IMG/VR virus record: IMGVR_UViG_3300009614_000107
Source: a virus
Taxonomy: Duplodnaviria > Heunggongvirae > Uroviricota > Caudoviricetes
Direction: 5' to 3' (one strand)
DNA length: 28,484 nucleotides
The first letter of the stretch is position 1; every line of letters begins with the position of its first letter. The position numbers were made by a program, and so were the translations under genes. A model generated the notes under the pieces. The model saw only the letters and a program-made list of their open reading frames with translations, was not told the origin of the DNA and made no database searches. Below, in pieces: positions 2,922 through 21,060 of the stretch.

Positions 2922-2959
2922 AATATATAAAGAAAGGGGTGCGTTTATAAGTGTTTGTG

Positions 2960-3822: not shown

Positions 3823-3843
3823 ATATGTTTTTCTTTTAACTTG

Positions 3844-3855: not shown

Positions 3856-3928
3856 ATGATTTAAAAACTAACTAAGATGGGCTTTGCTTGATTGTGGTTA
3901 CAGAAAAACTGGAACCTATAGCGTTAGG

Positions 3929-4015
3929 CTACTTTTTCGCCTTTCGCCTATTATACGACTTGACATGAACGACCTTATTTTTTTGGTGTCGTGTGTACGA
4001 TTTTACGTGTGGCAT
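3929..4015 (-). CDS. 28-aa basic peptide, putative virion DNA-binding protein (missed by ORF track)
   Basis: MPHVKSYTRHQKNKVVHVKSYNRRKAKK*; internal HVKSY repeat; same AGGAGGGTAG RBS (4023-4032) as the capsid-like genes. Confidence 0.75.
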   Translation of the reverse strand: MPHVKSYTRHQKNKVVHVKSYNRRKAKK

Positions 4016-4064
4016 TTATTTTCTACCCTCCTTTACTAGCTGTCAGTCTAAATTAGAAACTTGT

Positions 4065-4080
4065 GGGGGATTTCTCCCCC
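4065..4080 (-). terminator. GC-rich hairpin downstream of capsid-like gene
   Basis: GGGGGA-TTTC-TCCCCC inverted repeat; role as terminator or processing site is inferred. Confidence 0.35.
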
Positions 4081-4100
4081 CGTCAGGCTATCTTTCAAGA

Positions 4101-4307
4101 TTAAATCTTGTCAGATGACCTTGCAGCAACTGATATACCTACAAGTAAAGCTATAAGTACCAATATGCTGGCCATTACGTTGGCAGCCGATGTGAGGTTA
4201 GTTGAAGCAGCAGCCATAAATCCTAATGTAGCGATTAGAAGTACTACAGCTATAGCTACGACATATCCCAATATTGGTCGAGTTGTATCGAGCAGACCTT
4301 CTCCCAT
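4101..4307 (-). CDS. Putative major capsid protein of spindle-shaped virus type, copy 2
   Basis: 68 aa, two long hydrophobic helices joined by a short polar loop with an NLT sequon; RBS AGGAGGGTAG at 4315-4324. Confidence 0.65.
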   Translation of the reverse strand: MGEGLLDTTRPILGYVVAIAVVLLIATLGFMAAASTNLTSAANVMASILVLIALLVGISVAARSSDKI

Positions 4308-4410
4308 TTTTTAACTACCCTCCTAACGACTGTAAGGTGATGCGTTGTTGCCTCACCTGGGAACGATGTCTGGAGTTCTTCACTCCAGAGAGATTAATGG
4401 CTTGACAGGC

Positions 4411-4617
4411 TTAAACCTTGTCTGCGCTGCGTGCAGCGACAGAGATCCCTATGAGTAGGGCAATCAATACCAAGATGCTCGCCATTACGTTGGCAGCAGA
4501 GGTAAGGTTTGCACTTGTTGCAGCCATAAAGCCTAGGGTAGCGATTAGCAGTACCACGGCAATTGCCACAACATAACCCAATATGGGACGTGTAGTGTCA
4601 AGTAGACCTTCACCCAA
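4411..4617 (-). CDS. Putative major capsid protein of spindle-shaped virus type, copy 1
   Basis: 63/68 aa identical to 4101-4307; TTG start; RBS AGGAGGGTAG at 4625-4634; TTTATAT box near 4698-4704. Confidence 0.65.
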   Translation of the reverse strand: MGEGLLDTTRPILGYVVAIAVVLLIATLGFMAATSANLTSAANVMASILVLIALLIGISVAARSADKV

Positions 4618-4763
4618 AACTATTCTACCCTCCTAACAGGCTGAGATGATAGGGGCATCACTTTTGATAGCTCCAAGCGTAGAATATGCGCTTTGAAATA
4701 TAAACTTATCCACTTTGATTCGAGCTGATCTCGTTTCTAAATGCTCACACTATAAAAAAAGAG

Positions 4764-4886
4764 CTAATTCTTACGATTAACAACATCAGCAAATCTCTGT
4801 CGATGTGCTCCCAATAGTTGTGAGCAGGGATACTTGTTACACTTCTGTTTCTTACAGTACTCTCCATAGAAATCCGATGAGGACAT
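4764..4886 (-). CDS. Small hypothetical protein (40 aa)
   Basis: Manual ORF MSSSDFYGEYCKKQKCNKYPC..., starts right after the stop of the upstream ORF. Confidence 0.4.
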   Translation of the reverse strand: MSSSDFYGEYCKKQKCNKYPCSQLLGAHRQRFADVVNRKN

Positions 4887-4887
4887 A

Positions 4888-5058
4888 TTACACTTCATCT
4901 CGTTCAACCTTCTTAGCAACTGTTTTCTGACCGTCTACATTCTTGGCGTGTTTTCTCCAGCACTCCATACAACATTCACCAACATCTGGAATGTAGATTG
5001 AAAAAACATTTAGTGGTTTATGGCATTGAGCACATTCATTCTTCGTCTTTTTCATCAT
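4888..5058 (-). CDS. Small Zn-finger-like protein (56 aa)
   Basis: Manual ORF MMKKTKNECAQCHKP...CCMECWRKH; two CxxC motifs. Confidence 0.6.
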   Translation of the reverse strand: MMKKTKNECAQCHKPLNVFSIYIPDVGECCMECWRKHAKNVDGQKTVAKKVERDEV

Positions 5059-5248
5059 CTTCTATTACACCGTATTCTTTTGCTATTGGACACTTACTAC
5101 AGTCTGCTTCTGGTGCTAAAACATTGCCCAATCTATCCCAAAATGGGACACATTCACAGGGATACCTTGAATTATCAAATTTTAATGAACAGATTGGGGT
5201 CATCCACTTGAACTCATCTTTTTTTACATTGCTATGTTTTCGAACCAA
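5036..5248 (-). CDS. Small Cys-rich hypothetical protein
   Basis: ORF track; tiles with neighbours. Confidence 0.55.
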   Translation of the reverse strand: MVRKHSNVKKDEFKWMTPICSLKFDNSRYPCECVPFWDRLGNVLAPEADCSKCPIAKEYGVIEDDEKDEE

Positions 5249-5253
5249 GTGTG

Positions 5254-5541
5254 TTACTCCCTATAATCATCATATATCTCTAGGCTATTATCTTTGGCAT
5301 TAACTATGATTTCTCCGAACTTTTTGGAGAGTTCAAGCAACTCCTGGAGATTACGAATCTCGATGTAGAGTTCCCACCAGTACATTTTCTCTCTTATACC
5401 TTCGTTATTGAGTATTAAATCTGACCTTCCATCATTGTCAATGAATACATAAAATCCATTGTATTGTGAGAGATCCCAGTCTGGTTTTATCGGGGACCAC
5501 GTTCCACCCCAACTTGACGTTCTATAAATTCTGAATTTCAT
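5254..5541 (-). CDS. Hypothetical viral protein
   Basis: ORF track; ends ...LEIYDDYRE; tiles with neighbours. Confidence 0.7.
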   Translation of the reverse strand: MKFRIYRTSSWGGTWSPIKPDWDLSQYNGFYVFIDNDGRSDLILNNEGIREKMYWWELYIEIRNLQELLELSKKFGEIIVNAKDNSLEIYDDYRE

Positions 5542-5547
5542 TATGTA

Positions 5548-5841
5548 TCAATCCTTAGTTTGACCAAATGTCTTTTCTTTGTATTCTAATATATATTTGA
5601 GAAAGTCGGGTGTACCCTCACCAGCAATAACATATCGCCTCTCCCAACGGTTATCGTTGTCCTTGTTCTGCACCCAATTACCACGAATCATACCAAGGAT
5701 TTCTAACTCACCAAGTGCTTTAGCGATATGTTGTTTTGGCTGAGTGGGAAATTCTAATGCTAGTTTAGACAAAGTGAAGCCATTCTCCTTGTCTGTGTTA
5801 ATCTTCAAAAGAACATCATATTCAAACTTCATTATAATCAC
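5548..5841 (-). CDS. Winged-HTH-like protein
   Basis: TLSKLA...IAKALGELEILGMI followed by a beta-hairpin (RWERRYVI). Confidence 0.55.
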   Translation of the reverse strand: MIIMKFEYDVLLKINTDKENGFTLSKLALEFPTQPKQHIAKALGELEILGMIRGNWVQNKDNDNRWERRYVIAGEGTPDFLKYILEYKEKTFGQTKD

Positions 5842-6215
5842 CTATTAGATATCACCCAAGTCCCGTTTTCTGTGTTTATGTGGTAGTCGGGATCCCACAC
5901 GTATGCCACGTTGCTGTTTTCCCTGATTATGTAGAACGAGAGGTTGTAGTAGTACACTTTCCCATCGGAGAAGTGGGTGCGGAATTCACCAAGGGTTGCA
6001 ATCTTTACGGTGACTGTCGGTGCTTTAACGTAGGCATCGACTGCACCGAGTTCCTTGGAAAGGGACTTCATCGTTTCTACCCGTATGTCCCAGTACCTGT
6101 CCCAGTTCTCTTGGCTAGTCTTAAACTGGTAAGCGAAGAACACCACGACAGCGAATATGGCGCATATGGCTAGAATGGAGAATATGAACTTCGTGTTGTT
6201 TTCGTTTTTAGACAT
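5838..6215 (-). CDS. Membrane-anchored hypothetical protein
   Basis: N-terminal TM helix; NLS and NGT sequons. Confidence 0.7.
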   Translation of the reverse strand: MSKNENNTKFIFSILAICAIFAVVVFFAYQFKTSQENWDRYWDIRVETMKSLSKELGAVDAYVKAPTVTVKIATLGEFRTHFSDGKVYYYNLSFYIIRENSNVAYVWDPDYHINTENGTWVISNR

Positions 6216-6249
6216 CAGATCACCAGTCTACATATATCTTCAAAATTCA

Positions 6250-6516
6250 TTATGGACCACCATACTTCAAACTTTCGTAGAATGAATATGCTACATTTAT
6301 TGTTATAATTATAACAGCCACTAATATTAATCCCCAGAATGCAAAGTCCCAGAAACTTGGCATAACATTTGGTGGAACAGCATCTATATTAGATAAAAAT
6401 GCCTGTGGATACAGGTAAGCGTGAATGCTCATAATTCCAAGAATTACCAGCATAGCTAGAAGTGGCAGTGGATTTGGGGGCAAGTTGCCTCTGTGTTTGG
6501 TGATTTTAAATCTCAT
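6250..6516 (-). CDS. Two-TM membrane protein
   Basis: Two hydrophobic segments; ATGA overlap with upstream gene. Confidence 0.65.
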   Translation of the reverse strand: MRFKITKHRGNLPPNPLPLLAMLVILGIMSIHAYLYPQAFLSNIDAVPPNVMPSFWDFAFWGLILVAVIIITINVAYSFYESLKYGGP

Positions 6517-7199
6517 TTCTGGTCAACAACATTTAGCTTGACATAATCCCAATTCCAATAGGTGACATTGAATGTTGTGCCACCAAAACTGAACTCATAG
6601 TTCAATGGTAGCATAGCATTTGATGGAAGATCGTGTGTAAGTGTGAAAAATAGCCAGTTGCCTTTATTATCATTCAGATGAATGTCTTGACCAGTGTAAC
6701 TAAGTGTGATATCTTTATATTGTGTCTGTTCGAGTCCTCTGCCTAGAACTATGGTTGTAATCTCGACTGGTTGGATATCTGGGACTTTGACTACAATAAG
6801 GGCAACATAATCTGAGTTCCAGGCTCTAACCTTGAAAACGTATCCACAGAACGTGACGTTTGTAATGGGTGTTGAGACAGGATCGATTGGGTTACGTATT
6901 GCCTCATCGTGATCACCACAATATAGATACAGGTATTTTCCTTCATATTTCATATAGACGGTTCTGTATCGAACCATACCCATATCTCGACCAAGCATTA
7001 TGTCAGACTCTGTAACTATGTTCTGCCTTGAGGTGATTTCTGTGCTCTGTGGGGGAACAAGTTCCCATCCAGTGGAGAACGAAACTGCTGGGATGTAGAC
7101 TTTTGTTGGATTGACTGGGAATTGTGTACCAAGTAAGAACGAACCAACCATAACTATGGAAATTCCAATAACCAGAAGGACACGTTCTGCGCCATTCAT
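6513..7199 (-). CDS. Membrane-anchored beta-rich surface protein with internal duplication
   Basis: N-terminal TM; repeated motif NVTFCGYVFKVRAWNSDYVALIVV / EFSFGGTTFNVTYWNWDYVKLNVV; promoter at 7229-7240. Confidence 0.7.
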   Translation of the reverse strand: MNGAERVLLVIGISIVMVGSFLLGTQFPVNPTKVYIPAVSFSTGWELVPPQSTEITSRQNIVTESDIMLGRDMGMVRYRTVYMKYEGKYLYLYCGDHDEAIRNPIDPVSTPITNVTFCGYVFKVRAWNSDYVALIVVKVPDIQPVEITTIVLGRGLEQTQYKDITLSYTGQDIHLNDNKGNWLFFTLTHDLPSNAMLPLNYEFSFGGTTFNVTYWNWDYVKLNVVDQK

Positions 7200-7244
7200 T
7201 CTTATCCCTGAATTAATAGGTGCGATTATTTATAAATATTCTGA

Positions 7245-7472
7245 TTAAGGACGTTTTGGAATCTCCTTCCCTGTGATTATGTAGTTTATCAACTCTGCCT
7301 TGTCTCTGGCCGTAGTGAGTTGAAATACATAACCTAAATCCATAGAGAATGGAAGTTCATCCATTTCTCTTACAAGTTCGTTGAACATAAACTCTGCTCT
7401 TTGGACAATTTGATCCTTCGAGCCATAGTTGCTTTTTACCATCTTTTCTGCAAATGCTTGTTTGCTTTTCAT
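7245..7472 (-). CDS. Hypothetical protein
   Basis: ORF track; abuts upstream gene. Confidence 0.65.
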   Translation of the reverse strand: MKSKQAFAEKMVKSNYGSKDQIVQRAEFMFNELVREMDELPFSMDLGYVFQLTTARDKAELINYIITGKEIPKRP

Positions 7473-7775
7473 TTAAACCACCTGTTTTTTCTTCCTTTGT
7501 TCTTGTGTAAGTCTCTTGCAAAAGTTTACGATATCTGTAAGGCAATCTTCTTCAAACCAAATATCACTGAGTATTCTCATCCTCTCTCCATCTGCTTTTG
7601 CTGTAGACCTGAAAGCATATTTTCTCCATTGTGGGAACCAAGAAATTACACCCAACCAATCATTTGTTTGTGTGTTGGTTACGTGCCATACCTGAGTTTT
7701 TGGCTTATCTTCTTTTGGATCACGCCAGAAGTAAACCCATTTTCCATCATATCTATATTCAAATTTATTTTCCAA
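7473..7775 (-). CDS. Hypothetical protein
   Basis: ORF 7473-7823; likely start is TTG at 7775, just after the upstream stop, with a GAGG RBS. Confidence 0.6.
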   Translation of the reverse strand: MENKFEYRYDGKWVYFWRDPKEDKPKTQVWHVTNTQTNDWLGVISWFPQWRKYAFRSTAKADGERMRILSDIWFEEDCLTDIVNFCKRLTQEQRKKKQVV

Positions 7776-7776
7776 T

Positions 7777-8448
7777 TTATGAAACCTCTTCTTTTTTATC
7801 TTCCAGTTCAGGTAGACGGTCAACAGATAGTTGATCCTTGAGTTTTTCTAAACCAAGAGCCTTGAGTCTTTCTTCGATTAGGTGTGAGACTTCGTTCTTT
7901 GCCTCAATGACTGTCTGATCCATCTGCTCTGTGAAACTCTTTTTAATGTATGGAATATTTGAAGCGATTTGCATCCTAATCATATCTATCTGTTGCAGGA
8001 TTTCTTCTCTATCTTTCTTGCCGATGTTTGGCTTTGCTAAGATCTCCTTGATTTTTGTGATGAACTCGTTTGTTTCAGATGCTGTATCCTCTAATTTTTT
8101 CTTGAATTCCTCATCAAACTGGACACGTTTGCTCTCAAATGGTGGTGCTTCAATATTTTCACCATTAAACCACTCGATTGTGCAGGGTACTCCAGTTGTG
8201 TTGAGCGAAGTGATTGCGTCTGCCCACTGTGAGGGTGACATATAGACACTTATTAGAGGTGGAGAGATTGGGAAATAATCATCGTGGTAGATATCTCTAT
8301 TCAGTATGGCTCTTGAAATTTCGAGTTTTATGAATGCTTGCTGCTGGATACTGCTACCGAACAGGTTTTGTTTGCCAGATGATGTGCCTCTGACGATATC
8401 TATCATACCGAATGATGGGTGTTTCTTTTGATTGGCAAACATTTTCAT
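7777..8448 (-). CDS. Conserved-looking viral hypothetical protein with C-terminal coiled coil
   Basis: 223 aa; HPSFGMI...LFGSSI...MSPSQWA...GVPCTI pattern that I recognise from phage hypothetical proteins. Confidence 0.75.
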   Translation of the reverse strand: MKMFANQKKHPSFGMIDIVRGTSSGKQNLFGSSIQQQAFIKLEISRAILNRDIYHDDYFPISPPLISVYMSPSQWADAITSLNTTGVPCTIEWFNGENIEAPPFESKRVQFDEEFKKKLEDTASETNEFITKIKEILAKPNIGKKDREEILQQIDMIRMQIASNIPYIKKSFTEQMDQTVIEAKNEVSHLIEERLKALGLEKLKDQLSVDRLPELEDKKEEVS

Positions 8449-8717
8449 TTTTTCACCTTAAATATATTATCGAGTTCATCTGCACATTTATTGCGTATAT
8501 CCTCATCGTGCGGAATATAGTAATTTTTTTTATCTAAAGGATCATAAGTAGTTACACGTTTTCGCCAATTGTCTGGTAGAATATATATTTTTATTAATTG
8601 TGGGCAGTTGGATAGTGGTTTTTTAAGTATGCAACCATCTTCATCTTGACTACTTTCAGCACGATAATAGTTTATACATTTTTCACAGATTTCAGCCATA
8701 TCATCTATATCTATCAT
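8445..8717 (-). CDS. Cys-containing hypothetical protein
   Basis: CEKC...C...C; ATGA overlaps. Confidence 0.6.
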   Translation of the reverse strand: MIDIDDMAEICEKCINYYRAESSQDEDGCILKKPLSNCPQLIKIYILPDNWRKRVTTYDPLDKKNYYIPHDEDIRNKCADELDNIFKVKK

Positions 8718-8860
8718 TCTTTATTTTCCTCCTGATGATACTCAGGATGTGATGCTCGGCAATGTAATTCCACGAGATCCATACCACCCGTTTTATAACC
8801 CCAAGAAGCACCTTGAAGTTCTAAACAATGTTTATAATCTGGACATTTTTTGCAGATCAT
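8714..8860 (-). CDS. Small hypothetical protein (48 aa)
   Basis: Manual ORF MICKKCPDYKHC...; ATGA overlaps at both ends. Confidence 0.55.
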   Translation of the reverse strand: MICKKCPDYKHCLELQGASWGYKTGGMDLVELHCRASHPEYHQEENKE

Positions 8861-9114
8861 ATTGTGAACTTCCTGTGTAAAGTCTCATAGCTGGGTGTGT
8901 GACTGTGAACATTTCTGCACTCCGTGTGACACCAGCAATCAGAATCTGAGCATAGTCTTTTTGTGCCAAAACACCCTGGAATTTCTTTCTCCTTCTTTGG
9001 ATTAGGATAAAGTCTGCAATCGTTTCCATCATCTATCTCGAATGAGCAATGCAGAACGCCACCTGACGGACAGGATGGACACACAAACCCATTTCTATAA
9101 CAGTTCTCAGGCAT
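8857..9114 (-). CDS. Cys-rich hypothetical protein
   Basis: ORF track; multiple Cys clusters. Confidence 0.6.
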   Translation of the reverse strand: MPENCYRNGFVCPSCPSGGVLHCSFEIDDGNDCRLYPNPKKEKEIPGCFGTKRLCSDSDCWCHTECRNVHSHTPSYETLHRKFTI

Positions 9115-9352
9115 TTTTAACCAACTCTCTTTTCTTTGTCTTTGGATCGTAAATCTCTTTATCTGTTGCTCCCTCTGAGATCATAGTCCCATCATATAGA
9201 ACTTTCCAGCCTCTGCCACAGTTTGGGCAATCCCAATATCCATAGGGATATGCCCATTTAGCATATCCATTATCATTTTTGAAATTTTGAAGATGCTTCA
9301 CTCTGTCTACCAGTTTGCCTTTACCACAGTGAGGACACTTCAATGCACCCAC
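9107..9352 (-). CDS. Zn-ribbon protein
   Basis: CPHCG...CPNCG. Confidence 0.7.
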   Translation of the reverse strand: MGALKCPHCGKGKLVDRVKHLQNFKNDNGYAKWAYPYGYWDCPNCGRGWKVLYDGTMISEGATDKEIYDPKTKKRELVKNA

Positions 9353-9495
9353 ACCTCATATCCACAGTGGTGGCAAACAAACCATTGCCTGTCCATACCG
9401 TCAAAGACGGGAAATTCTGTCTCTGTTGATTTGCACTCAGGACATTGTGCAACAACTTTGCCGTCATCTTTTTTAACATATTTTAGGTCAACCAT
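9340..9495 (-). CDS. Zn-ribbon protein (51 aa)
   Basis: Manual ORF MVDLKYVKK...CPECK...CHHCGY. Confidence 0.6.
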   Translation of the reverse strand: MVDLKYVKKDDGKVVAQCPECKSTETEFPVFDGMDRQWFVCHHCGYEVWVH

Positions 9496-9796
9496 TTCTA
9501 TCACTTTCCATCATCTGGAGATATTTATATCCACCTTTTGGAAGTGTTTTACGATCTTCTGCACGTTGATTACATTGGCCATCTATCAAGCCTGGACGAA
9601 GCGTTATTCTGTAATCATTCCATAATTTGCCATATTTAAAGGCTTGAATCATCTCGTCAATCATAATATGAAATTCTGGGATTGATGTTTTTTGTTGATA
9701 GTTTATCTCGTGATAAAAATTACAAAGTGCTGACCACGATGTGTTTTTATTGCGTGTTGTCAAGTAACAGGCGTAAATTTGATCTGGTGGCATCAT
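9488..9796 (-). CDS. Hypothetical protein
   Basis: ORF track; tiles with neighbours. Confidence 0.55.
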   Translation of the reverse strand: MMPPDQIYACYLTTRNKNTSWSALCNFYHEINYQQKTSIPEFHIMIDEMIQAFKYGKLWNDYRITLRPGLIDGQCNQRAEDRKTLPKGGYKYLQMMESDRNG

Positions 9797-10125
9797 TTGG
9801 GATCCCTGTTTTCTAGTTTGTAAACTTCCGCTTCGTCTATACCAAACTCAAAGTCTTTTGAATCGTCAACTCTGCAAAGTGTGCAGTAATCATCCCAATC
9901 CATGCAGACCATTTGTCCATTTTCACCCATAAACCAACCTTCCTTGTTAGTCCAGCCTATGAAAAATGGGCATCTTACTTTTTCAAAACCATTTTTGACC
10001 ATATATTGTCTATATTCTTCTCTGTAGTTGGCATCTTCATCTGATGTTATCTTGGAAATATCTATATCTTTAATGCCTTTGACTTCTCGAAGCCAACCAG
10101 AGTAAGTATAGTTTACAGGTTTCAT
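9793..10125 (-). CDS. Hypothetical protein
   Basis: ORF track; GAGGATGA RBS-like sequence upstream. Confidence 0.65.
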   Translation of the reverse strand: MKPVNYTYSGWLREVKGIKDIDISKITSDEDANYREEYRQYMVKNGFEKVRCPFFIGWTNKEGWFMGENGQMVCMDWDDYCTLCRVDDSKDFEFGIDEAEVYKLENRDPK

Positions 10126-10135
10126 TTTATCATCC

Positions 10136-10372
10136 TCAAATTGATTTTATGAGAGAAGTTCCTTTTCTCTCGGACTCAGGTGGTGTCAGTTCATTAAAAC
10201 ATTTTGGAAATATCCAAAAAACTTCACCAATACAAAGAGCAAAGTTGACACCCCACATAGCAACCATAATCCAATTTTGTGTGATAGTGATATTAATGAC
10301 TAAGAATGATACTGCCATTGATATATGTAATGGTATCCAGAACATCTCGAAATATGCAAATTTATGTCCCAT
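10136..10372 (-). CDS. Two-TM membrane protein
   Basis: Two hydrophobic segments. Confidence 0.6.
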   Translation of the reverse strand: MGHKFAYFEMFWIPLHISMAVSFLVINITITQNWIMVAMWGVNFALCIGEVFWIFPKCFNELTPPESERKGTSLIKSI

Positions 10373-10805
10373 TGAGTTTCGCCTGTTCCTCTTGAATTAT
10401 TCCAAACAACTTCTCCTCATCATCCTTAGAGATTACGTCTGCTAGATGAAGAAGATATCTGAAATTATCGATGAGATTCCAGAGATCATTACCGTAATTA
10501 TCTGGGTCGAGTGCCTTCTGCTTGTGTTCGTCAAAGTTCTCCATAGAGTCACGCCAGTAGATTGGGAATGTCATTATGTGGCTTCTAAGTTGCTCGTTGT
10601 CCTTTATTCTATGAGAAACATTCCAGGCTAGACTGTGCTCTTTAAGTGCCTTGATTTCATCTGGGAATAGGTCACAAGCACCCTTGAGTTTTCCTAGAAA
10701 GACGTTAATATCTCCGAGTTCGGATGAACCAAGTGAGTGCATTGAGTATAGGATAGCATAGGTGTACACTTCACTGTTCATTTCTAGGATTTTTTTAAGA
10801 CTCAA
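10362..10805 (-). CDS. Hypothetical protein
   Basis: ORF track; short overlaps with neighbours. Confidence 0.65.
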   Translation of the reverse strand: MSLKKILEMNSEVYTYAILYSMHSLGSSELGDINVFLGKLKGACDLFPDEIKALKEHSLAWNVSHRIKDNEQLRSHIMTFPIYWRDSMENFDEHKQKALDPDNYGNDLWNLIDNFRYLLHLADVISKDDEEKLFGIIQEEQAKLNGT

Positions 10806-11139
10806 TTTTTTTTACCTTCTTACTATCTATTAAGATAAATATTATAGCAGATATACTACCAAAAACAACTACCCAGTTAATAAGAGGTGTGCCATCAACT
10901 CCTATTGGATAGTTAAATATATTCATATATTCACCCATAAGATTTTTAGACCAATCGAGATAACCAAGTGAATATGAAGGAACTAAGATATAAAATGGTA
11001 AACCAACTATTTCCATTAAAGCAATAAAGAAAGAGATACCTAAGAATACGAAGGTAAAAATTACTGGTATAAAAACGATTTTTTGTGATAGTCTGGTGCT
11101 CTTCCACCAATTACTTACAAATTCAAGGCTCATTTCCAT
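10795..11139 (-). CDS. Membrane protein
   Basis: Two to three hydrophobic segments. Confidence 0.6.
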   Translation of the reverse strand: MEMSLEFVSNWWKSTRLSQKIVFIPVIFTFVFLGISFFIALMEIVGLPFYILVPSYSLGYLDWSKNLMGEYMNIFNYPIGVDGTPLINWVVVFGSISAIIFILIDSKKVKKIES

Positions 11140-11408
11140 ATTTGCTCCTTTGTGGCTTTAACTGTAACGTAAATATTATCCCACTTGACGTTGAGATAAT
11201 CCTTCCAGTGGGAAGAATCTTCACCTGTACTCTGCATCTCCAAGTCTTGACTGTCCTCTGTTATGAGGTTTTGGTATTCATCAACTATGACAAATTTGGG
11301 GATTTTTTTGCTGACTATCTCGCAGCAGGAGCGTCCATAACAGTTTGCCCAACCATTAAGATATCCTTGACAGGTCTTTGTGCAGTTGTACATCATCCAG
11401 ACTTTCAT
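11130..11408 (-). CDS. Hypothetical protein
   Basis: ORF track; ATGA overlap. Confidence 0.6.
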   Translation of the reverse strand: MKVWMMYNCTKTCQGYLNGWANCYGRSCCEIVSKKIPKFVIVDEYQNLITEDSQDLEMQSTGEDSSHWKDYLNVKWDNIYVTVKATKEQIWK

Positions 11409-11710
11409 TGACCAAGCTCTCCTAGTTGTTTATTGAAATATTCTATAATTTGCTCTGGGGTTTTGCCTACTAGTTCTTTCTCAATCATATCTATCTGCTT
11501 TTCCATATGCTCTGTTGTGCATTTCTTTGAATGTGCATCTAGAACTTTCTTATAAGAAGCAAAGTCTGGATATTTCTCAGCTTTAACAACATAACCACAC
11601 CAAATGCACTTCCAGGGCATCTTCTTATAATATCCAATCTCCTGTATATCGAGTAGTTTGCCCCTAAGAATTTCTGTTGTATTATCCAGTTCGGTCATTA
11701 TGTCCTTCAT
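11405..11710 (-). CDS. Zn-finger-like protein
   Basis: CIWCG...H...C; ATGA overlap. Confidence 0.6.
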   Translation of the reverse strand: MKDIMTELDNTTEILRGKLLDIQEIGYYKKMPWKCIWCGYVVKAEKYPDFASYKKVLDAHSKKCTTEHMEKQIDMIEKELVGKTPEQIIEYFNKQLGELGQ

Positions 11711-11955: not shown

Positions 11956-11956
11956 T

Positions 11957-12742
11957 TTACATATCCCCCAGTTTCTCATCCCATTCCAACATTTTATCTC
12001 TAAATGTTTTTAAAGAATCATAATCTGCAATGGCTGGTATTGTTGGAATAGATGATATTGCAGTTCTCCACTTTTTATTTTCTTCCTGAATCTTCTCAAG
12101 ACGAGACTCTGCTTGTATGGCTCTATCTTTCCAAGTGAGTTTGTTTATGAACATTAGAGCATCTGTTCTATTATATTCTGAAATCAAACTTGCTATCCAG
12201 TTTTCATAATGCCTATTTTCTTCCTGAACCTTTTTTAGATCTTCTTCAGTGTCAGCTACACCTCTTGAATAGCCACTTAATTCAGCCTCATCATAGATTT
12301 GTTGGCTTCTCTCAGTTTGGGCTTTATTGATTGCAAATACCGCCTCTCGTCTGACATTGGATAGTTCATCTGTAAGTTGATTGTTTTTGAACTCAGCATC
12401 CTTTATTCGTTTTTCCATATGTTTGATGAACTCCACAACATATTCACCATCAGGATTGATAACATCATTCCCAACATAATCCATAATAATTTTAAATTCA
12501 GTCTTTTCTATCTCCAACCTCTTCTTTATCTGATATAATTCTTTGCTTATTCTCTCGATAGCATCATCTTCCATTGATTTATCAGATTCTATCTGTTGTT
12601 TGAGTGTAACAATATCAGCTTCAATGTTTTTCTTATATCTGAAAAGAGAATCAACATCAGTTCTGGTTAAAGTCACCTTGGCTCTTGGTGCTTCAAGATA
12701 TTTCCATAAGTTCTCTACAGGATCGATTCGTTTTTCATTCAT
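11957..12742 (-). CDS. Coiled-coil protein
   Basis: 261 aa, heptad-rich E/K/Q segments. Confidence 0.7.
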   Translation of the reverse strand: MNEKRIDPVENLWKYLEAPRAKVTLTRTDVDSLFRYKKNIEADIVTLKQQIESDKSMEDDAIERISKELYQIKKRLEIEKTEFKIIMDYVGNDVINPDGEYVVEFIKHMEKRIKDAEFKNNQLTDELSNVRREAVFAINKAQTERSQQIYDEAELSGYSRGVADTEEDLKKVQEENRHYENWIASLISEYNRTDALMFINKLTWKDRAIQAESRLEKIQEENKKWRTAISSIPTIPAIADYDSLKTFRDKMLEWDEKLGDM

Positions 12743-13236: not shown

Positions 13237-13388
13237 TGATATTCACACTCACAATCGTCCTCTGGCTGACCACAATCAGCACAGATATATTGGTCTTTTT
13301 CTGCATCTAAGTGTAAGAACGAGCCACACCAACATCTCATTCCAGCAAGTTTGTCAAGTTCGGTTAGTTCTATTTTTTGTTTATCCAA
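13233..13388 (-). CDS. Small Zn-binding protein (51 aa)
   Basis: Manual ORF (TTG) MDKQKIEL...CWCG...CADCG...CEC. Confidence 0.55.
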   Translation of the reverse strand: MDKQKIELTELDKLAGMRCWCGSFLHLDAEKDQYICADCGQPEDDCECEYH

Positions 13389-13391
13389 ATT

Positions 13392-13850
13392 TTACCACTC
13401 CGAAATTTTTACAATGTCACGAATCTGCATTATCATCTTTCCGAGCTTGTCCTGACCTTTAAAACCCCAGTATGGATGGCTTGTGTTTTCGTGGAGAACA
13501 GCATCACCAGTGAGTACAAGTTGCTCCTTTAAGCCTTCGTTCTTTACAAACTTTGCCTTTAATCCAGCCATCATAACTGTGTCCTTGACCCTATCCCAAT
13601 CTTTGCGAATTTTCTCGACTGAGAAGGATTGGCCAGCTTTCATAGCTGAAAATGGTGTGGGTGAGTTGATTATCCACTGAACTAGTTCAGGATCTGTGTA
13701 TTTTGCACTTTGATAGAAATGTTCTACTGAACCATATTTTCTTGGTGTTTTATCTAGAGACACTGGGTTGACAACCGTTATTTCAACTGGGTAGAGATTA
13801 GATAGGAAATTGTACTTCTCAGACCTATAGTTGAAATAGATTTCGTTCAT
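13392..13850 (-). CDS. NADAR (YbiA-like) family protein
   Basis: FLSNLYP, SVEHFYQSAKY, DWDRVK..VM...LKAKF, LVLTGDAVLHE, YWG, LGKMIMQIR; promoter at 13879-13890. Confidence 0.9.
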   Translation of the reverse strand: MNEIYFNYRSEKYNFLSNLYPVEITVVNPVSLDKTPRKYGSVEHFYQSAKYTDPELVQWIINSPTPFSAMKAGQSFSVEKIRKDWDRVKDTVMMAGLKAKFVKNEGLKEQLVLTGDAVLHENTSHPYWGFKGQDKLGKMIMQIRDIVKISEW

Positions 13851-13894
13851 TTAGTTCGTTATGTATAAGGTGTTTGTGTTTATAAATATTCTGG

Positions 13895-14203
13895 TTATGG
13901 ACGAATTAAGTTCTCAAACCTATGTGTAACAGTACTCAGAGGAGCACCCATACTTGAACCCGTTCCAACCCAACCACGATGAGGCGTTTCTACGGCTATA
14001 TCGTAGAGCATTCCTTGGTAGGCTGGACTTGACATTTTTCTCTGCCAATCGACAAGTTCACCCCACTCGATTAGGGCTACTCTTATTGGGTGCTGTTTTG
14101 AGGCTATATATCCAGGTTGGCTTCTTGTTATAAGACCAAATCTCACAACATTTCTTCTTCTCTTTTTGAGTGATTTTCGAGTCTCGACCCAGATAGTGAC
14201 CAA
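13895..14203 (-). CDS. Hypothetical protein
   Basis: ORF track; first gene of the leftward arm at a divergent intergenic region. Confidence 0.5.
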   Translation of the reverse strand: MVTIWVETRKSLKKRRRNVVRFGLITRSQPGYIASKQHPIRVALIEWGELVDWQRKMSSPAYQGMLYDIAVETPHRGWVGTGSSMGAPLSTVTHRFENLIRP

Positions 14204-14310
14204 GGATGTTCTATATGATAATTCAATATTAGACGTTTAAACTTTGTGTATATGCCGTTATGATAATAAAGATTTAATAGCCGTTTATAAATACATATGA
14301 TAGAAATAGC

Positions 14311-14811
14311 TTGTCATCTTTAAGAAAAAAGACTTGGGATGACTTTACTAATTACCTCAGAGAACAATGGACAGGTTTTCCACCAGAAATCCAAGAGGGA
14401 GCAAGTAGAGTTTACAGACGAGTTGGTCCAGTTGCTAATAAGACAGCACAGTACTATGCAAACTCTGGAAAAGAACAAGGCAAGAGAGCAATTATGGAAA
14501 ATCTTAAAAAAGTTCCTTTGAGAACACCATATACTGGTCCTAATGCTTTCAAACCAAAACCAAAACCCGATCCAAATAAAAGAAAGGGAAGTTGGTGGGA
14601 TATAGTACTTTCTCCGAAAGAACAGGATGATATTAAAGCAGCTAGAGAAAAATTAAGAAATGGTTATAATTCAGTTACAGATACAAGTACAGTAAATCAG
14701 ACTGTTGTTGTGAATAAACCAACAAGAAAATCTAGTAAAAATGTAGCTGTTTCTAAAAGTTCAATTCCAAGTTATTTACAGCCAGATGATAAGAAAAAGG
14801 TGAAGAAGTAA
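14311..14811 (+). CDS. Basic hypothetical protein
   Basis: 166 aa, Lys/Pro-rich; TTTATAAA at 14284-14291. Confidence 0.7.
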   Translation: MSSLRKKTWDDFTNYLREQWTGFPPEIQEGASRVYRRVGPVANKTAQYYANSGKEQGKRAIMENLKKVPLRTPYTGPNAFKPKPKPDPNKRKGSWWDIVLSPKEQDDIKAAREKLRNGYNSVTDTSTVNQTVVVNKPTRKSSKNVAVSKSSIPSYLQPDDKKKVKK

Positions 14812-14812
14812 A

Positions 14813-15505
14813 ATGTCATTCTTTGGATTAGGTCCATTCGAACTAATACTAGGTGCTGGTGCAATTGTCGCTGTTGGAGCAGTTGTTTGGACAATGCGTG
14901 GCTCTGGTGGCAAAATCAGAAAAACAGTCACTTTCTTGATGCCTGGAGAAAGGAGAGGTGTAGAACTTAGGGTTACTAAAGAAACCGACTATGGGCTATA
15001 CACAAAGAAATCAGAGGGTGTAAGTAGAAGATTCATTAAATTGGCTCGTGGATATGCCATTAAGAGAGGAAGTAGCAATGTTGTTACTTTCTTCGGTCTT
15101 GAAGGCACTATCTTCACTGCTGCACCTGGAAAAATCTCTATGAGGAGAAACTTGGCTGAAACGCTCAAGTTCCTCTGGGGAGAACCTTTCTACGATCAAA
15201 TTCCAGAACCTGAGAGGAAGATTGTTGAGGCTGGCACTATTGGTGTAACAGTTGAAGTTGATCCATCGGACTTAGAGCAATTAGGTATCACTGAGGATGA
15301 TGAGTCTGAAGAAGGCAGAAAGATCCTAAGAATGTCCTCTGTTGATGTGAATGCTGAGACAGATGCACAAGTTCTAGAGACAATTGCAAATGCCAACAAG
15401 CCAAAGGTAGAGAATAGAAGGGAACTATATCAGATGCTTATTGGTATGGGTCTTGGCTTCGGACTTTGCCTATTCCTTGCATCTCAGGGCTGGATTAAGA
15501 TATGA
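14813..15505 (+). CDS. Membrane protein with N- and C-terminal TM helices (putative morphogenesis module)
   Basis: Terminal hydrophobic helices; in an operon with the ATPase. Confidence 0.75.
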   Translation: MSFFGLGPFELILGAGAIVAVGAVVWTMRGSGGKIRKTVTFLMPGERRGVELRVTKETDYGLYTKKSEGVSRRFIKLARGYAIKRGSSNVVTFFGLEGTIFTAAPGKISMRRNLAETLKFLWGEPFYDQIPEPERKIVEAGTIGVTVEVDPSDLEQLGITEDDESEEGRKILRMSSVDVNAETDAQVLETIANANKPKVENRRELYQMLIGMGLGFGLCLFLASQGWIKI

Positions 15506-15765
15506 CCGAAAAAAGAAAGTTTGTTGATATTTTAAAGAATATCAATCCTTCATATCACATTAATTTGTTCATTCGTTGCTTGATACCAACACTATCAATT
15601 GTACTAGCAATCGCAATTATGCTTATTGCTATACCATCATCAGTAACAGATATATTTATGTTTGATTTGTCATATGTACAGTTCCTAGCAAGAATACTAG
15701 TTATAATCTTTATGTATAATATTGGTAACTTCATCATAAGAGAAATAGTCTTAGGAGTAACTTAA
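15502..15765 (+). CDS. Two-TM membrane protein
   Basis: Hydrophobic; ATGA overlap. Confidence 0.65.
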   Translation: MTEKRKFVDILKNINPSYHINLFIRCLIPTLSIVLAIAIMLIAIPSSVTDIFMFDLSYVQFLARILVIIFMYNIGNFIIREIVLGVT

Positions 15766-15767
15766 AA

Positions 15768-16166
15768 ATGTCTGCTGAAGATATGGGTCCACCGCCAGAT
15801 ATGGTCGGTCAGAGTCTAGCACCACAACTTGGTACAGACTCTATGGACTTAGGTATGGGCAAGACGGATATGCGTAGACTTACGATAATTCCGAGAGAAC
15901 TGCTTATGCCTGTTATGTATGGAGAGATCAGGTCACAGAAAAGCCAGACTTGGGTGACTGTTCTTGATGTCATAAAGAATTGGTCTGTGGCCATTGGTGG
16001 CAGAGGACGTAGAGACATCATCCGTATGGAACAGGTTTCCAGAGGTGGTGGTGGTGTCAACGTTGAGGCAGAGATAGAGGCTAACAAGCCTAACTGGGTT
16101 GCCAGAAACGTTTACGACAGAGACTGGAAGGATACCAAGCTCAGGGAAGCTGGGGAAATCGTCTAA
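15768..16166 (+). CDS. Hypothetical protein
   Basis: 132 aa; GGAG RBS. Confidence 0.75.
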   Translation: MSAEDMGPPPDMVGQSLAPQLGTDSMDLGMGKTDMRRLTIIPRELLMPVMYGEIRSQKSQTWVTVLDVIKNWSVAIGGRGRRDIIRMEQVSRGGGGVNVEAEIEANKPNWVARNVYDRDWKDTKLREAGEIV

Positions 16167-16177
16167 GGTGAAATCAC

Positions 16178-16414
16178 TTGAAATGCCCAAAATGTGGTTC
16201 TGATATGATCAAATATGAATGTCCAGTCTGTGGTTACATATCCAATACTTGGATCAAAGTCCTCAAACTAATAAAAGAATTGCCAAATAATGTTGGCAAA
16301 AAGGGTGGTAGAGATATTATACAATGCCATATATGGAATGATGAAGAGGACAAATCTATTTATGATAGAGATTGGAAATCCGACAAACCCAAGGAAGCTG
16401 GGGAGATTGTTTAG
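16178..16414 (+). CDS. Zn-ribbon protein, partial paralog of 15768-16166
   Basis: CPKCG...CPVCG then RDII...YDRDWK...EAGEIV; GGTGA RBS. Confidence 0.65.
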   Translation: MKCPKCGSDMIKYECPVCGYISNTWIKVLKLIKELPNNVGKKGGRDIIQCHIWNDEEDKSIYDRDWKSDKPKEAGEIV

Positions 16415-16534
16415 ACAACTGGTGAGACTGTCAAGCACAAACACAGTCATTTCTGATAATTTTTTGGTTCCTTTCTTTTTCCTGATTATAATAATATTTG
16501 TGATTGATTGGTTATCGTGGAGGGATACTAAGAG

Positions 16535-17302
16535 TTGGCACAAAACACAAGAGAACAAAATAGAGAAGCAGTAGCCAAGAAGTACAGTCTGCCAGATGCA
16601 GACATTCGTGATACAGTAACTATTTCACAGTTACTTTACAGACAAATTGAGAGATGTAACCAGGCTGGTTCGAGTAATGAAAATCTGAACTTTGAGGGAA
16701 CAGTTGATGTCCTTTTCCAGATGGTTCCAAACCACGTTAGACAGTCTGTTGTTGGTCGTGTAAAAGAGTATAAACAAACCACGGAGAAACCAGTCTACAG
16801 ATACAATGCTGGCACACCGATTGGATCTCCAGAGCACCCAGTAAGATTGCCAGACGGGACAATTTGGAGTCCGATTATGGAGAAGTCTGAATTCATAGAC
16901 TATAGGTTGCTCTTCAACATCATAATGCAGGAACTTGAAAATTCTAAGATTACTTGGCGTTATGATTCAATGACTATGGAGCTCGGAAAAGTAGATGTTG
17001 TTGAAGTTGAAATTCCAATCGAGACTCAGGAGAAAGCCAAAATATATCTAGAGAAACTTATCGAAGAAGATAAGAAGGCTGGATATGATTACGCAGAAAT
17101 CAGTGCAGAAAGTGCATATTACAATCTATGTAAGAAGATAACACCTGAGATTCCTCCACCATCACCTGTGTTCAAGGAAACTAACGCAGACTTTGATGTA
17201 GATGATACTGAGGATACAAAGGAGGGAACACAGGCTCTTCCTGAAGCAGAAGAGGGAGAAGAAGTAGAGGGAGAAGGTGAGGGAGAAGAAGATGAGTCGT
17301 AG
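16535..17302 (+). CDS. Hypothetical protein with acidic C-terminal tail
   Basis: 255 aa; GGAGG RBS; E/G-rich tail. Confidence 0.75.
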   Translation: MAQNTREQNREAVAKKYSLPDADIRDTVTISQLLYRQIERCNQAGSSNENLNFEGTVDVLFQMVPNHVRQSVVGRVKEYKQTTEKPVYRYNAGTPIGSPEHPVRLPDGTIWSPIMEKSEFIDYRLLFNIIMQELENSKITWRYDSMTMELGKVDVVEVEIPIETQEKAKIYLEKLIEEDKKAGYDYAEISAESAYYNLCKKITPEIPPPSPVFKETNADFDVDDTEDTKEGTQALPEAEEGEEVEGEGEGEEDES

Positions 17303-18542
17303 CAATAAATCTCTTGTAGATGTCGCAAAAATCAAAGATGATAGGTCTAAGAAGAAAAAAGAGAAAACATCAGATCACGCTATAGATGTTCTCTCGACTC
17401 CTGGCACGACAGAATATGTTGAAAATCATAAGCCAAAAGAGGAACTAAAAACTCCAGACCAATTATTTCCGTCAAAGTACAAAAACCTAAGACCAGGGGC
17501 TAATGTTCTCGAAGAGGGTATTCAAAATTGGAATGGATTTAAAGTTCCTGTGTCTGGTGGAAAAACAGCAGAGTTCTTCAATCTGATTGAGAGCAGGAGA
17601 AAGAAAAACCAGTCGTGTATGATTATTATCACTGGTGATCCAGGTGGCGGTAAAACTTACGCTGCCCTCAGACTTGGAGAAATTTTCGACTCTCGATTTA
17701 ATGTTGAAGTTACTCCATACGATGAGCCTGGAAGATCACAGGTTACTTTCGGCAGAAAGCAACTTATGCACTTAATCGGAAATGACACTCCACTACAGAG
17801 AGAGCAAGTGATAGTCATAGATGAAGCTCAGTTTGCTATGGGTTCAAGACGCTGGTACGAAGATGTACAGAAAGACCTGATAGAGCAGATTGAAGCTGTA
17901 CGTTCCAGAGGCTTTGTGATAATTATTGTTTCGCTACACCTAAACCTTCTGGACAATATTATCAGACGTTACGTCCTAACCTTTATGATTCATATGGAGG
18001 ATAGAGGACGTGGAGTCGTTTACAGACTTTATACTCCCAGATTCGAATCTGAGATGAGGAAGAAGAGGCTTGGTTCCATTCAGTTGAATTTGCCGAACTA
18101 TGAGTACTGTAAACACCCAGACTGTTTGAGATGCCCATACCTCTATCCAGAGGATCCCAAAAAAGAGTGCATTCTTTTGAGAGCAACCTATGAGAGAAGC
18201 AAGAAGGCTTTCATCGGTAACAAGAACATAGAGAAAGAGGCACAACACGAAGCAAGGGAGAGAAAGAGAAGCGGTGCTCCACCAGTGGCAAGGCAACTAG
18301 AGAAGGCAACAGCCAAGATTACACAGGATATTGAGAAGGTTGCCCAGAGAGAAACCGCAGAGGCAGAGATAGCCAACAAAATTATAGATCATCAGGACGA
18401 ATTAAGGGTGGACGAGCGTTCTGGAGCCTACGAAGCCAGTTCAGCCCAGGAAATCCTGAACAAGTACTATAGTCTTGTAATCAGTCGTGAGAGAACGAAG
18501 AGAATCCTCAAAATAATTCAAAAAAGGCTAAAATCTCGTTAA
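17292..18542 (+). CDS. P-loop ATPase (Zot/AAA-like; putative packaging or assembly ATPase)
   Basis: Walker A IIITGDPGGGKT, Walker B VIVIDEAQ, Cys cluster CKHPDCLRC; likely start ATG 17292 (track start 17277). Confidence 0.85.
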   Translation: MSRSNKSLVDVAKIKDDRSKKKKEKTSDHAIDVLSTPGTTEYVENHKPKEELKTPDQLFPSKYKNLRPGANVLEEGIQNWNGFKVPVSGGKTAEFFNLIESRRKKNQSCMIIITGDPGGGKTYAALRLGEIFDSRFNVEVTPYDEPGRSQVTFGRKQLMHLIGNDTPLQREQVIVIDEAQFAMGSRRWYEDVQKDLIEQIEAVRSRGFVIIIVSLHLNLLDNIIRRYVLTFMIHMEDRGRGVVYRLYTPRFESEMRKKRLGSIQLNLPNYEYCKHPDCLRCPYLYPEDPKKECILLRATYERSKKAFIGNKNIEKEAQHEARERKRSGAPPVARQLEKATAKITQDIEKVAQRETAEAEIANKIIDHQDELRVDERSGAYEASSAQEILNKYYSLVISRERTKRILKIIQKRLKSR

Positions 18543-18544
18543 AA

Positions 18545-18800
18545 TACGAAATTTCCAGCCCTAATTTTTGGCATCCCCCTGTCACGGAAAGCTAAGTTTG
18601 GCTATTAATGATCCGTAACCCCCAGAGCCCCTAGGGGCGATTTTCGGCAGACTATTTGGCGCAATAAAAGTTTATATTTTATTGGGGGGGTATATAGGGT
18701 GGGGGCATCCCCCCAGGGCGAATAAAATTAAATATACTTCCGTTGGGGAAACGGGGCAGAAATAAAAGAGATCGGGATCTAGGGTGTATGGGCATAGAAC
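18545..18800. other. Non-coding G/C-run and palindrome-rich region (candidate origin or packaging signal)
   Basis: GGCATCCCCC at 18570 and 18704, palindrome GCCCCTAGGGGC at 18627-18638, inverted repeat CAATAAAA/TTTTATTG near 18662-18684, long G runs; function inferred. Confidence 0.35.
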
Positions 18801-18840
18801 AAAGTTATAGTACCAGAGAACAATGTTGTAGGTGTTGGAA

Positions 18841-19005
18841 ATGACGAAAGGAGTAGCATTGGGAAAGTATGACTGCCAACTGTGTGAGCATTATGGCGGT
18901 TCCTGTGAGAATACGTACAATAATCCAGGCACTGTGATCTTCTGTAAAAAGCAAAGATGCCTCATAAAGAGGCGATCCAGTCCTATGAAGGGGTGGCGTT
19001 CATAA
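18841..19005 (+). CDS. Small Cys-rich protein (54 aa)
   Basis: Manual ORF MTKGVALGKYDCQLCEHYGGSC...; overlaps the next ORF. Confidence 0.35.
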   Translation: MTKGVALGKYDCQLCEHYGGSCENTYNNPGTVIFCKKQRCLIKRRSSPMKGWRS

Positions 19006-19382
19006 ACAATTATATTCCAGAGACACAGTATATCATCTTAGACGGTTCTTTGAGGAAAACGAAGCCAGAAGCTACTTTAGAGGCATCTTTTGAGAGGTTT
19101 GGGATACCCTACACGCCTCAGAAATCTATTGCAGGGACTGTATTGGTGGATATCTTCTTGGAACCAAACATTTGTGTCTTTGTTGATGGGGATTACTGGC
19201 ATAACTATCCTTTGGGTTTGGACAAGGACAAGCGTCAAACGGAGTTATTGGAGTCTTGGGGCTATAAAGTATTCAGATTCTGGGAGCACGATATATTAAA
19301 TAATCCAGATTTAATTACCCAGAAATTAATTGAGGAAAATAATATTAAAATAAATAATAACTTGGAGGAGTATTTTAATTGA
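18957..19382 (+). CDS. Vsr/DUF559-like PD-(D/E)xK endonuclease
   Basis: VDIFL...VFVDGDYWH...DK....LESWGYKVFRFWEHDI. Confidence 0.85.
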   Translation: MPHKEAIQSYEGVAFINNYIPETQYIILDGSLRKTKPEATLEASFERFGIPYTPQKSIAGTVLVDIFLEPNICVFVDGDYWHNYPLGLDKDKRQTELLESWGYKVFRFWEHDILNNPDLITQKLIEENNIKINNNLEEYFN

Positions 19383-20089
19383 ATATTCGGGGAACTAGTT
19401 TATTGGTTATTGCTATAGTATTTTCTTTGACAACTACTGTTATTAGCCAAAGCCTTGGTACACCAGGAATTATTGGTTTATTCTGGGGTATATTGCCTAA
19501 GAAAGAATTCAGGATATTATTTTTGTTAAATTTAATATCCTTGGGTTGGGGATTAATTGTTATGCAAAATTTCCTGTCCAGTACATATTCTGGAATGAAT
19601 ATTCAAAATATATCTGGGTCAACAAATAATAATTATTTGCCAGATAATACTCAGTCAGGAAATATTCAAGTTAGTAGCAGTGGTATTTCTGCCACAATTG
19701 AGAATATTATATTGGGAATTATTAAATTGCCTCAGACTGTAAAAAATATATTCCCAACGAGTATTAATTATATTGGTGAATTTATTGGGGCTGGATTATA
19801 TTCTGCTTTAGTATTTTTCGGTTTATTCGCTGTGGTGGCTGGATTATTTATTAGCCTAGCAATTTCTATTATTTATATTTCCAATTATTATTTATTGAGG
19901 AGTTTATTATATCCATATTTACCAAATATTGTTACAGTATCTAATGGGCAATATCCTATGGAATACGGAAATATTATGGCCACGACTGGACTGTCACTCT
20001 ACGTAATATATTTCCTAGGATCAATTGTTTTGACACATTTGCTGTTAAAGAGGATAGGCTTTTACAGTAGGGTACGTGGTTTAGTGTGA
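19379..20089 (+). CDS. Multi-pass membrane protein
   Basis: 236 aa, several hydrophobic segments, very AT-rich codons. Confidence 0.65.
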   Translation: MNIRGTSLLVIAIVFSLTTTVISQSLGTPGIIGLFWGILPKKEFRILFLLNLISLGWGLIVMQNFLSSTYSGMNIQNISGSTNNNYLPDNTQSGNIQVSSSGISATIENIILGIIKLPQTVKNIFPTSINYIGEFIGAGLYSALVFFGLFAVVAGLFISLAISIIYISNYYLLRSLLYPYLPNIVTVSNGQYPMEYGNIMATTGLSLYVIYFLGSIVLTHLLLKRIGFYSRVRGLV

Positions 20090-20184
20090 GCGAAAGAGAA
20101 GGTTGTGTGATATGAGCTTTGATAATTATATACTGTGGGGCAAGAGCGAAGTTTCGCTTTTCGCTCTTATCGATTTTCGCTCTT
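20088..20184. repeat. GAGCGAA/TTCGCTC motif cluster upstream of the recombinase
   Basis: GAGCGAAA 20088, AAGAGCGAA 20142, TTTCGCT 20152, TTTTCGCTCTT 20158 and 20174. Confidence 0.55.
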
Positions 20185-20202
20185 CATCAAAGGTGATATG
20201 GT

Positions 20203-21060
20203 ATGGGTGTTAGACAAGGCGGTTGGGCTCCACGTCAGCCTCTATTGAGTAAAGACGTTTTGAACGCATTGAAGGAAGATCTCATTCCATTGTGGGATGA
20301 GGGATTGAGTGCAGAAGAAATAGCAGACAGACTGGAGTTCGGTAAGTACCCATATGAAGATTTGAAAACTTATCACGTTTGGTACTATAGAAAACAATTT
20401 GGTTGTCAGAAAAGAAAGGGTGGAATTGAGAAAGGAAAGCCACGTTATAATGTCAAGCCTGATGTTATTGAACCACCAACCATTCAGGAAATTGAAGCCA
20501 AATTGAATGAAGTCTATCCACTATTGAAAAACAATGCTGGTGCAACTGACCTCAACACATTGATGGTTAGAGCATACATCTGGTTGCACAGATACAGTCC
20601 ACTGAGAAAAAGTGAGATATATGAGAGGGAACTAGGTGACTTCTACATTGATGAGAAAGCAAAAATACTAACACTTCAGAACTTTATCAGGAAAAAGAAA
20701 TTAAAGGGTAAAGCAAAAGAAGCACCTTTCCTTATCCCCTTGGATTATCCACACGTGATGGATGAAATTGTCACCTATCTTGTAAGAAGGATTGAACGTA
20801 CACAGGATTCGAGTGCCAAGGCATTTCCAATGTCGGGTTGGGTTGCCTGGAACAGAATGAAGAAAGCCTTCCCAGATATGTACCCACACTACTGGAGATT
20901 CAAATATATCACAGAGTCTGCCAGTGACCCAAACGTCCCTATTGAAGATTTACTAGCAGATACTGATCTAAATTTACTGACTTTGAGGCGTTATATGATG
21001 ACGGGTGAAAGACAACGTTTGGCTTCATTACAGAGAAGGAAACAGAGAGAACTTGTTTAA
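20203..21060 (+). CDS. Tyrosine recombinase/integrase with N-terminal HTH
   Basis: Catalytic pattern R (PLRKSEI), K, HxxR (PHYWR), Y (TLRRY); N-terminal GLSAEEIADRL; GGTGA RBS. Confidence 0.8.
   Translation: MGVRQGGWAPRQPLLSKDVLNALKEDLIPLWDEGLSAEEIADRLEFGKYPYEDLKTYHVWYYRKQFGCQKRKGGIEKGKPRYNVKPDVIEPPTIQEIEAKLNEVYPLLKNNAGATDLNTLMVRAYIWLHRYSPLRKSEIYERELGDFYIDEKAKILTLQNFIRKKKLKGKAKEAPFLIPLDYPHVMDEIVTYLVRRIERTQDSSAKAFPMSGWVAWNRMKKAFPDMYPHYWRFKYITESASDPNVPIEDLLADTDLNLLTLRRYMMTGERQRLASLQRRKQRELV

Follow-up and report, generated by a model that had tools for sequence, protein, structure and literature searches.

First-position Leu and Arg codon swaps at the self sites of two VIPR guides in a probable archaeal virus are consistent with ordinary divergence

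When a virus encodes guides that almost match its own genes, do the differences between guide and self allele record escape from self-silencing, or divergence of the ordinary kind? The question is raised by two guides in the window (the whole 28,484-nt stretch of DNA analyzed here). VIPR consists of Vipr and vrRNA, with Escherichia phage SUSP1 as the type example (bioRxiv 10.64898/2026.04.26.720920, 10.64898/2026.04.26.720927); in published systems, a Vipr filament forms on constant triplets, the intervening NN pairs base pair with the target, and transcription is silenced. One base of the target is skipped, usually the wobble base, and the founding paper argues that this skip defeats synonymous third-position escape (bioRxiv 10.64898/2026.04.26.720920). 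The original prediction held that the self alleles in the window differ from their guides mainly by synonymous first-position swaps in Leu and Arg codons, as a mark of self-avoidance. If this were true, such swaps would be the only synonymous exit from a guide code whose published description makes it resistant to escape of this kind, and self-avoidance could be recognized from sequence; the data presented below show neither.

The source is likely a large archaeal virus, probably of Bathyarchaeia, since the proteins of the window recur on peat and wetland metagenome contigs as long as 197 kb, and a homolog of its capsid-like protein is annotated in a Bathyarchaeia MAG. The vipr gene (3104..3670, minus strand) encodes a stand-alone Cas7/RAMP-fold protein of 188 aa; its AlphaFold model (pLDDT 84) has Csm3/Cas7 as best Foldseek matches (E 7.5e-8, TM 0.5-0.63), and its homologs elsewhere have pentamer arrays on their flanks. 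A scan of the window revealed no CRISPR array and no other cas gene beside it. Period-5 AGT-NN arrays lie on the minus strand around this ORF and beside the ORF at 20203-21060; there are four, of 11 to 14 units each, and the same layout is found beside the 77%-identical Vipr homolog of a sister virus. The constant triplet is AGT/TGT, with GGY absent from this role, and Vipr homologs of 33 to 41% identity link both types, having GGT/GGC arrays, some with AGT and GGT mixed. The window carries a VIPR system composed of a Cas7-fold Vipr and AGT-NN guides with a 1-nt skip, an assignment made from the fold matches, the array layout, and the skip rule, set against the published Vipr by described features.

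Several observations accompany this locus. The vipr gene is neighbored by an ORF for a 197-aa membrane-like protein and by a metallophosphoesterase gene, and a tRNA-Ser(GCT) gene is present at 25590-25674 on the minus strand. Four distant Vipr homologs (L037, L039, L041, and L042) have GGT, GGC, or mixed AGT/TGT/GGT scaffolds, forming a gradient between the GGY and AGT types.

The arrays were read as NN pairs, and the window was scanned with skips of 0 to 3. Guides A (2958..3022) and B (3026..3095), both on the minus strand, have no near-match in the window beyond chance (shuffled-guide P 0.5-0.8), whereas the self near-matches of guides C and D exceed chance (P 0.002-0.007). Guide C (3750..3821, minus strand) is a vrRNA-like array upstream of vipr in which a TTGCT leader is followed by 13 NN units and a 3′ hairpin. 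Guide D (21083..21139, minus strand) is a solo vrRNA-like array of 11 units with the same leader, an upstream TATA-like box, and a 3′ hairpin; it is convergent on the recombinase gene, whose stop codon the hairpin overlaps. The first units, CA and TT, were retained as guide, and the alternative of treating them as non-guide was dropped, because both follow the shared leader and match target codons. On the self site, guide D matches 18/22 read bases with a skip of 1 and 15 to 16 with other skips; in two homologs, it reads 21/22 with the wobble base skipped. An exact-pattern scan of viral_contigs with all four guides returned zero perfect targets, a result that carries little weight since none of the collections scanned contains this virus family. 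Guides A and B, which lack exact targets there, decode to helicase Walker-A-like and receiver-domain-like motifs. Guides C and D each adjoin their own self gene (3750-4015 and 20977-21139), at a distance from the self site of about 110 bp for C and about 75 bp for D, a linkage tight enough that it would hold guide and resistant allele together during recombination.

Guide C nearly matches (21/26) the last 13 codons, stop included (3929..3967, minus strand), of an ORF (3929..4015, minus strand) for a basic peptide of 28 aa in which an HVKSY motif is doubled; this ORF lies behind two capsid-like genes. All five mismatched codons differ at position 1: GTC versus AT (V/I), TCG versus GC (S/A), GCG versus CC (A/P), and the silent Arg pairs AGG versus CG and CGA versus AG. 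No perfect target for guide C was found. The homolog in the sister virus (L021:7694-7789) has a Val codon identical to that of the window, Arg codons with the same AG-then-CG first-position state, a Ser drawn from the alternative codon family, and the Pro that guide C encodes; the sole self-specific first-position change among the compared codons is the nonsilent A/P. This was the single peptide homolog obtained. Contigs with capsid homologs (L053-L059 and L061) stop short of the gene or lack it, and a relaxed peptide-pattern scan of viral_contigs gave zero matches. The two capsid-like paralogs themselves (4101-4617) are 91% identical in protein sequence, with 6 of their 12 read-position differences silent; the duplication is present in L053 and L061, and the sister virus shows a single copy.

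The gene facing guide D (20203..21060, plus strand) encodes a 285-aa protein with a tyrosine recombinase fold. Its Foldseek matches to Cre/Tre, Tn1549 Int, and XerA are weak (E about 1e-4, TM 0.35-0.48) and it has no match in Pfam; its invariant residues R135, H229, R232, and Y264 correspond to the R-H-R-Y catalytic set. The self near-match of guide D (20977..21009, plus strand; 18/22) spans the invariant Tyr264 and contains three mismatched codons: CTG versus TT (silent Leu), AGG versus CG (silent Arg), and CGT versus AA (R/K), the last at both read bases. Relatives fit better, with 21/22 in L047 (87% amino acid identity) and L050 (76%) and 20/22 in L060; distant alleles L015-L017 match at 18/22 and the sister virus (L019/L048, 89% identity) at 17/22. 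No perfect target for guide D was found. Sampling of the family is thin: searches of viral_contigs and genome_contigs found no member, a metagenome scan yielded four distant loci, and a search of 1.84 billion proteins returned only distant proteins that came without DNA. Contigs from four peat runs, which drop rare variants, showed no alternative letters at site C or D among the matches listed.

How much does each site D mismatch say about self? The Arg codon is AGR in 8/8 alleles seen, including both 21/22 targets, which places the CG mismatch on the guide side or points to an unsampled target; this mismatch cannot tell self from the known guide D targets. The R/K codon is CGT in the window and CGG in the sister virus, and the residue flipped at least four to five times on a 15-protein tree, with clustering no greater than with shuffled labels. 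The CTG codon is self-specific among near relatives, yet a CT-type codon also occurs in L060. At the self CTG, the guide U would presumably stand opposite a template G as a wobble pair, and at the 5′ unit of the guide; SUSP1 structures assemble from the guide 3′ end, with the 5′ end engaged last, so of the candidate escape changes CTG is probably the weakest. Guide D encodes the Lys-type recombinase allele found in relatives, at which it is most likely aimed; self differs from this target mainly at a naturally variable Arg/Lys codon.

Decoding of the arrays and scanning of the window reproduced the tally behind the original prediction exactly: guides C and D meet eight mismatched codons, four of them silent first-position Leu or Arg differences, and the remaining four are V/I, S/A, A/P, and R/K as listed. 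The swaps are thus present, but they make up half of the mismatches (4/8) rather than most of them. The further statement that six-fold codon swaps are the only silent escape is nearly right, but it leaves out the TCN/AGY families of Ser, the codon that differs between the window and the sister virus at site C. As an enriched signature of escape, the swaps did not hold up. Between the window and L047, 58 codons outside the site D footprint differ at read positions, 23 of them silently (40%), and the 4/8 at the two self sites is not significantly above this share (Fisher P = 0.71); the recombinase gene thus shows the same swap rate elsewhere along its length, the finding that the prediction had set against itself. 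Conserved Leu codons are swapped at 14/28 positions versus L047 (1/2 inside the footprint) and 14/24 versus L050 (50-58%), and conserved Arg codons at 5/19 versus L047 outside the footprint. Among the codons on which L047 and L050 agree, 2/11 inside and 21/183 outside differ in the window (P = 0.37); 9 of those 21 outside differences are silent, which is again comparable (4/8 versus 9/21, P = 1.0).

The silent share varies strongly with Leu/Arg content, from 1% in 12-codon windows with no conserved Leu/Arg to 35-52% in those with three or four. Swapping of four of five conserved Leu/Arg codons gives P = 0.016 at the lowest background (0.24-0.25, window versus sister virus over 12 genes), a figure that assumes all four swaps arose in this virus when three are in fact shared; at the recombinase's own background of 0.4-0.5, P is 0.09-0.19. 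The swaps fit the codon register of the guides but, by these comparisons, appear to be ordinary divergence under purifying selection in Arg/Leu-rich windows. The prediction had also offered the swap pattern as independent support for the guide code. The code does find support in homologs of the virus's own genes, through the guide D match to L047 and L050; the swap pattern supports it far more poorly.

The phylogenetic position of the changes also weakens the case for the swaps as a mark of self-avoidance. Three of the four are shared with the sister virus or, for the recombinase Arg, with every homolog seen, and only two of the eight mismatches, CTG (silent) and A/P (nonsilent), are peculiar to this virus. 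The sister virus encodes a Vipr of its own together with at least eight guides; over the 35 kb seen, none of these guides resembles C or D, and none scores above 15/26 on sites C and D. Given that span, the sister virus or the common ancestor may have had the guides. Taking the shared L047/L050 state as ancestral, the window and the sister virus together accumulated five read-base changes in the 11 codons of site D versus 2.0 expected (P = 0.056), in four codon events versus 1.7 (P = 0.09), two of them silent versus 0.58 (P = 0.12); L047 and L050 show no read-base change between them. This excess is a weak trend that leaves some escape possible, with the K-to-R codon carrying as much of it as the silent swaps. 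It is not decisive, since escape and the retention of guides with pre-existing self mismatches predict it equally well.

We therefore favor, with a probability of roughly 0.7, a reading in which guides C and D serve as VIPR guides against the alleles that related viruses have of two genes also present in this virus, the self differences are ordinary divergence, and selection, if any, acted on which guides were kept and not on silent swaps. Should the AGT-type system work like published VIPR, Vipr would bind the constant triplets, the NN pairs would read codon positions 1 and 2 on the template strand, and binding would silence the gene. Guide D would block expression of relatives' recombinase, and guide C that of a relative's basic, probably DNA-packaging, peptide. 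Self would be spared by several mismatches, chiefly the R/K codon of site D, which differs at two bases, and the five one-base mismatches of site C. The self alleles would have diverged from the guides largely before the guide arose or independently of it; with positions 1 and 2 under purifying selection, conservative amino acid changes and Leu/Arg/Ser codon-family swaps would be what is left, at about the gene-wide rate. Selection against self-silencing, if any, would most likely retain guides whose self site already differs, perhaps with the guide itself drifting or being tuned, for which the CG unit of guide D would be an example. On this evidence, the silent differences at the self sites appear to bear no special escape signature.

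Could the gene nonetheless have escaped? Site D may have changed after the guide was gained, before the window and the sister virus split, or under attack by guide-bearing kin; the steps would be Lys to a CGN Arg on the stem, CTG in the window, and ATG plus CTA in the sister virus, with silent swaps a part but not the main route. The inferred ancestral allele (L047 and L050, equal at all read bases) matches guide D at 21/22, the window and the sister virus group apart from L047 and L050 (bootstrap 72), and CGN at the R/K site produces two mismatches where AGR would produce one; these observations, with the excess described above, speak for escape. We nevertheless regard such escape as unlikely: that excess falls short of significance, the retention of mismatching guides predicts it equally, the R/K residue changes readily within the family, site C offers only the nonsilent A/P as a self-specific change among the codons compared, and CTG would amount to a wobble pair at the last-engaged end. 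Similarly doubtful is the broader proposal that solo guides next to the viral copy of their target gene are linked guide-plus-immune-allele cassettes that exclude close kin, the carrier lineage having actively changed the positions that its guide reads (Lys to a CGN Arg, swaps within the Leu family) so that six-fold codons evade the wobble-skip code.

It is quite improbable that the self sites are still bound, with the guides tuning the virus's own recombinase and basic-peptide genes and the mismatches only weakening binding. Both guides adjoin their self sites, and the self matches (81% and 82%) pass the 80% target cutoff of the founding paper, above which no self match was found in the clades tested there (bioRxiv 10.64898/2026.04.26.720920); natural targets average 89% (bioRxiv 10.64898/2026.10.15.759431). 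A guide kept for self-regulation, however, should follow the self allele, whereas guide D fits relatives better than self and guide C encodes Pro like the sister virus, not the self Ala. That the guides are old relics, gained against a past allele and drifting with the gene with no current target, is very improbable indeed: no perfect target was found for any of the four in viral_contigs and the CG unit of guide D matches none of the alleles seen, but the virus family is missing from those collections, guide D matches living relatives at 21/22, and the scaffold, leader, TATA-like box, and hairpins are intact.

Two further loci deserve mention. The sister virus (L021: 9489-9611, 10569-10855, and 12492-12546) has a Vipr of 77% identity, and its guides, at least eight in number, form an entirely different set, laid out in staggered arrays with an AGCAG motif plus three bases between them. 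Its guide b decodes like a methyltransferase SAM-binding motif (VLDSACGTG-like), and its solo array at 12492-12546, just before a TFB-like gene, decodes to RGRS...AA, like a TFB core motif; the best TFB match, 14/20 in L060, is not significant. In L052 (2839-3987 and 10001-11150), some 6 kb separate a Cas1-family gene, which may be of the casposon type, from a Vipr homolog that has a long guide array, a proximity that bears on the proposed VIPR-to-CRISPR route. No convincing target of the sister guides a-h or the L052 guides was found in the loci examined.

The preferred reading places this system close to published VIPR, with which it shares a stand-alone RAMP-fold gene, flanking pentamer arrays, a constant triplet plus NN, and a 1-nt skip on the wobble base; guides of published systems target rival mobile elements, and guide D likewise matches relatives' genes. 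It differs in its AGT/TGT triplet (published systems have GGY, with "a related consensus" allowed), in belonging to a probable Bathyarchaeia virus, in which no vap gene was identified, and in having two self sites above the cutoff, unlike the clades of the founding paper. The natural series of guide D alleles (21, 21, 20, 18, and 17 of 22) offers material for testing mismatch tolerance and self/nonself discrimination in an archaeal AGT-type system, measurements of which a term search did not find in the three VIPR reports (bioRxiv 10.64898/2026.04.26.720920, 10.64898/2026.04.26.720927, 10.64898/2026.10.15.759431). In the anti-recombinase and solo vrRNAs, guides read codon positions 1 and 2 of the active-site stretch of a rival recombinase and self scores are lower than nonself scores; a term search of that report found no mention of first-position Leu/Arg swaps (bioRxiv 10.64898/2026.10.15.759431). 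The window resembles these vrRNAs in having a guide over a recombinase active-site stretch, a solo guide away from vipr, and a self score below nonself. There, however, the target is a satellite's recombinase and self-avoidance was shown for vrRNA loci, while here solo guide D adjoins the homolog of the target gene that the virus itself carries. Silent escape mutations also occur in CRISPR protospacers, where escape is constrained by coding, and free-standing homing endonucleases of T-even phages are linked to an immune allele, the targeting element adjoining the resistant own allele. Both parallels are analogies only, as the targeting element here is a gapped RNA guide and involves no nuclease.
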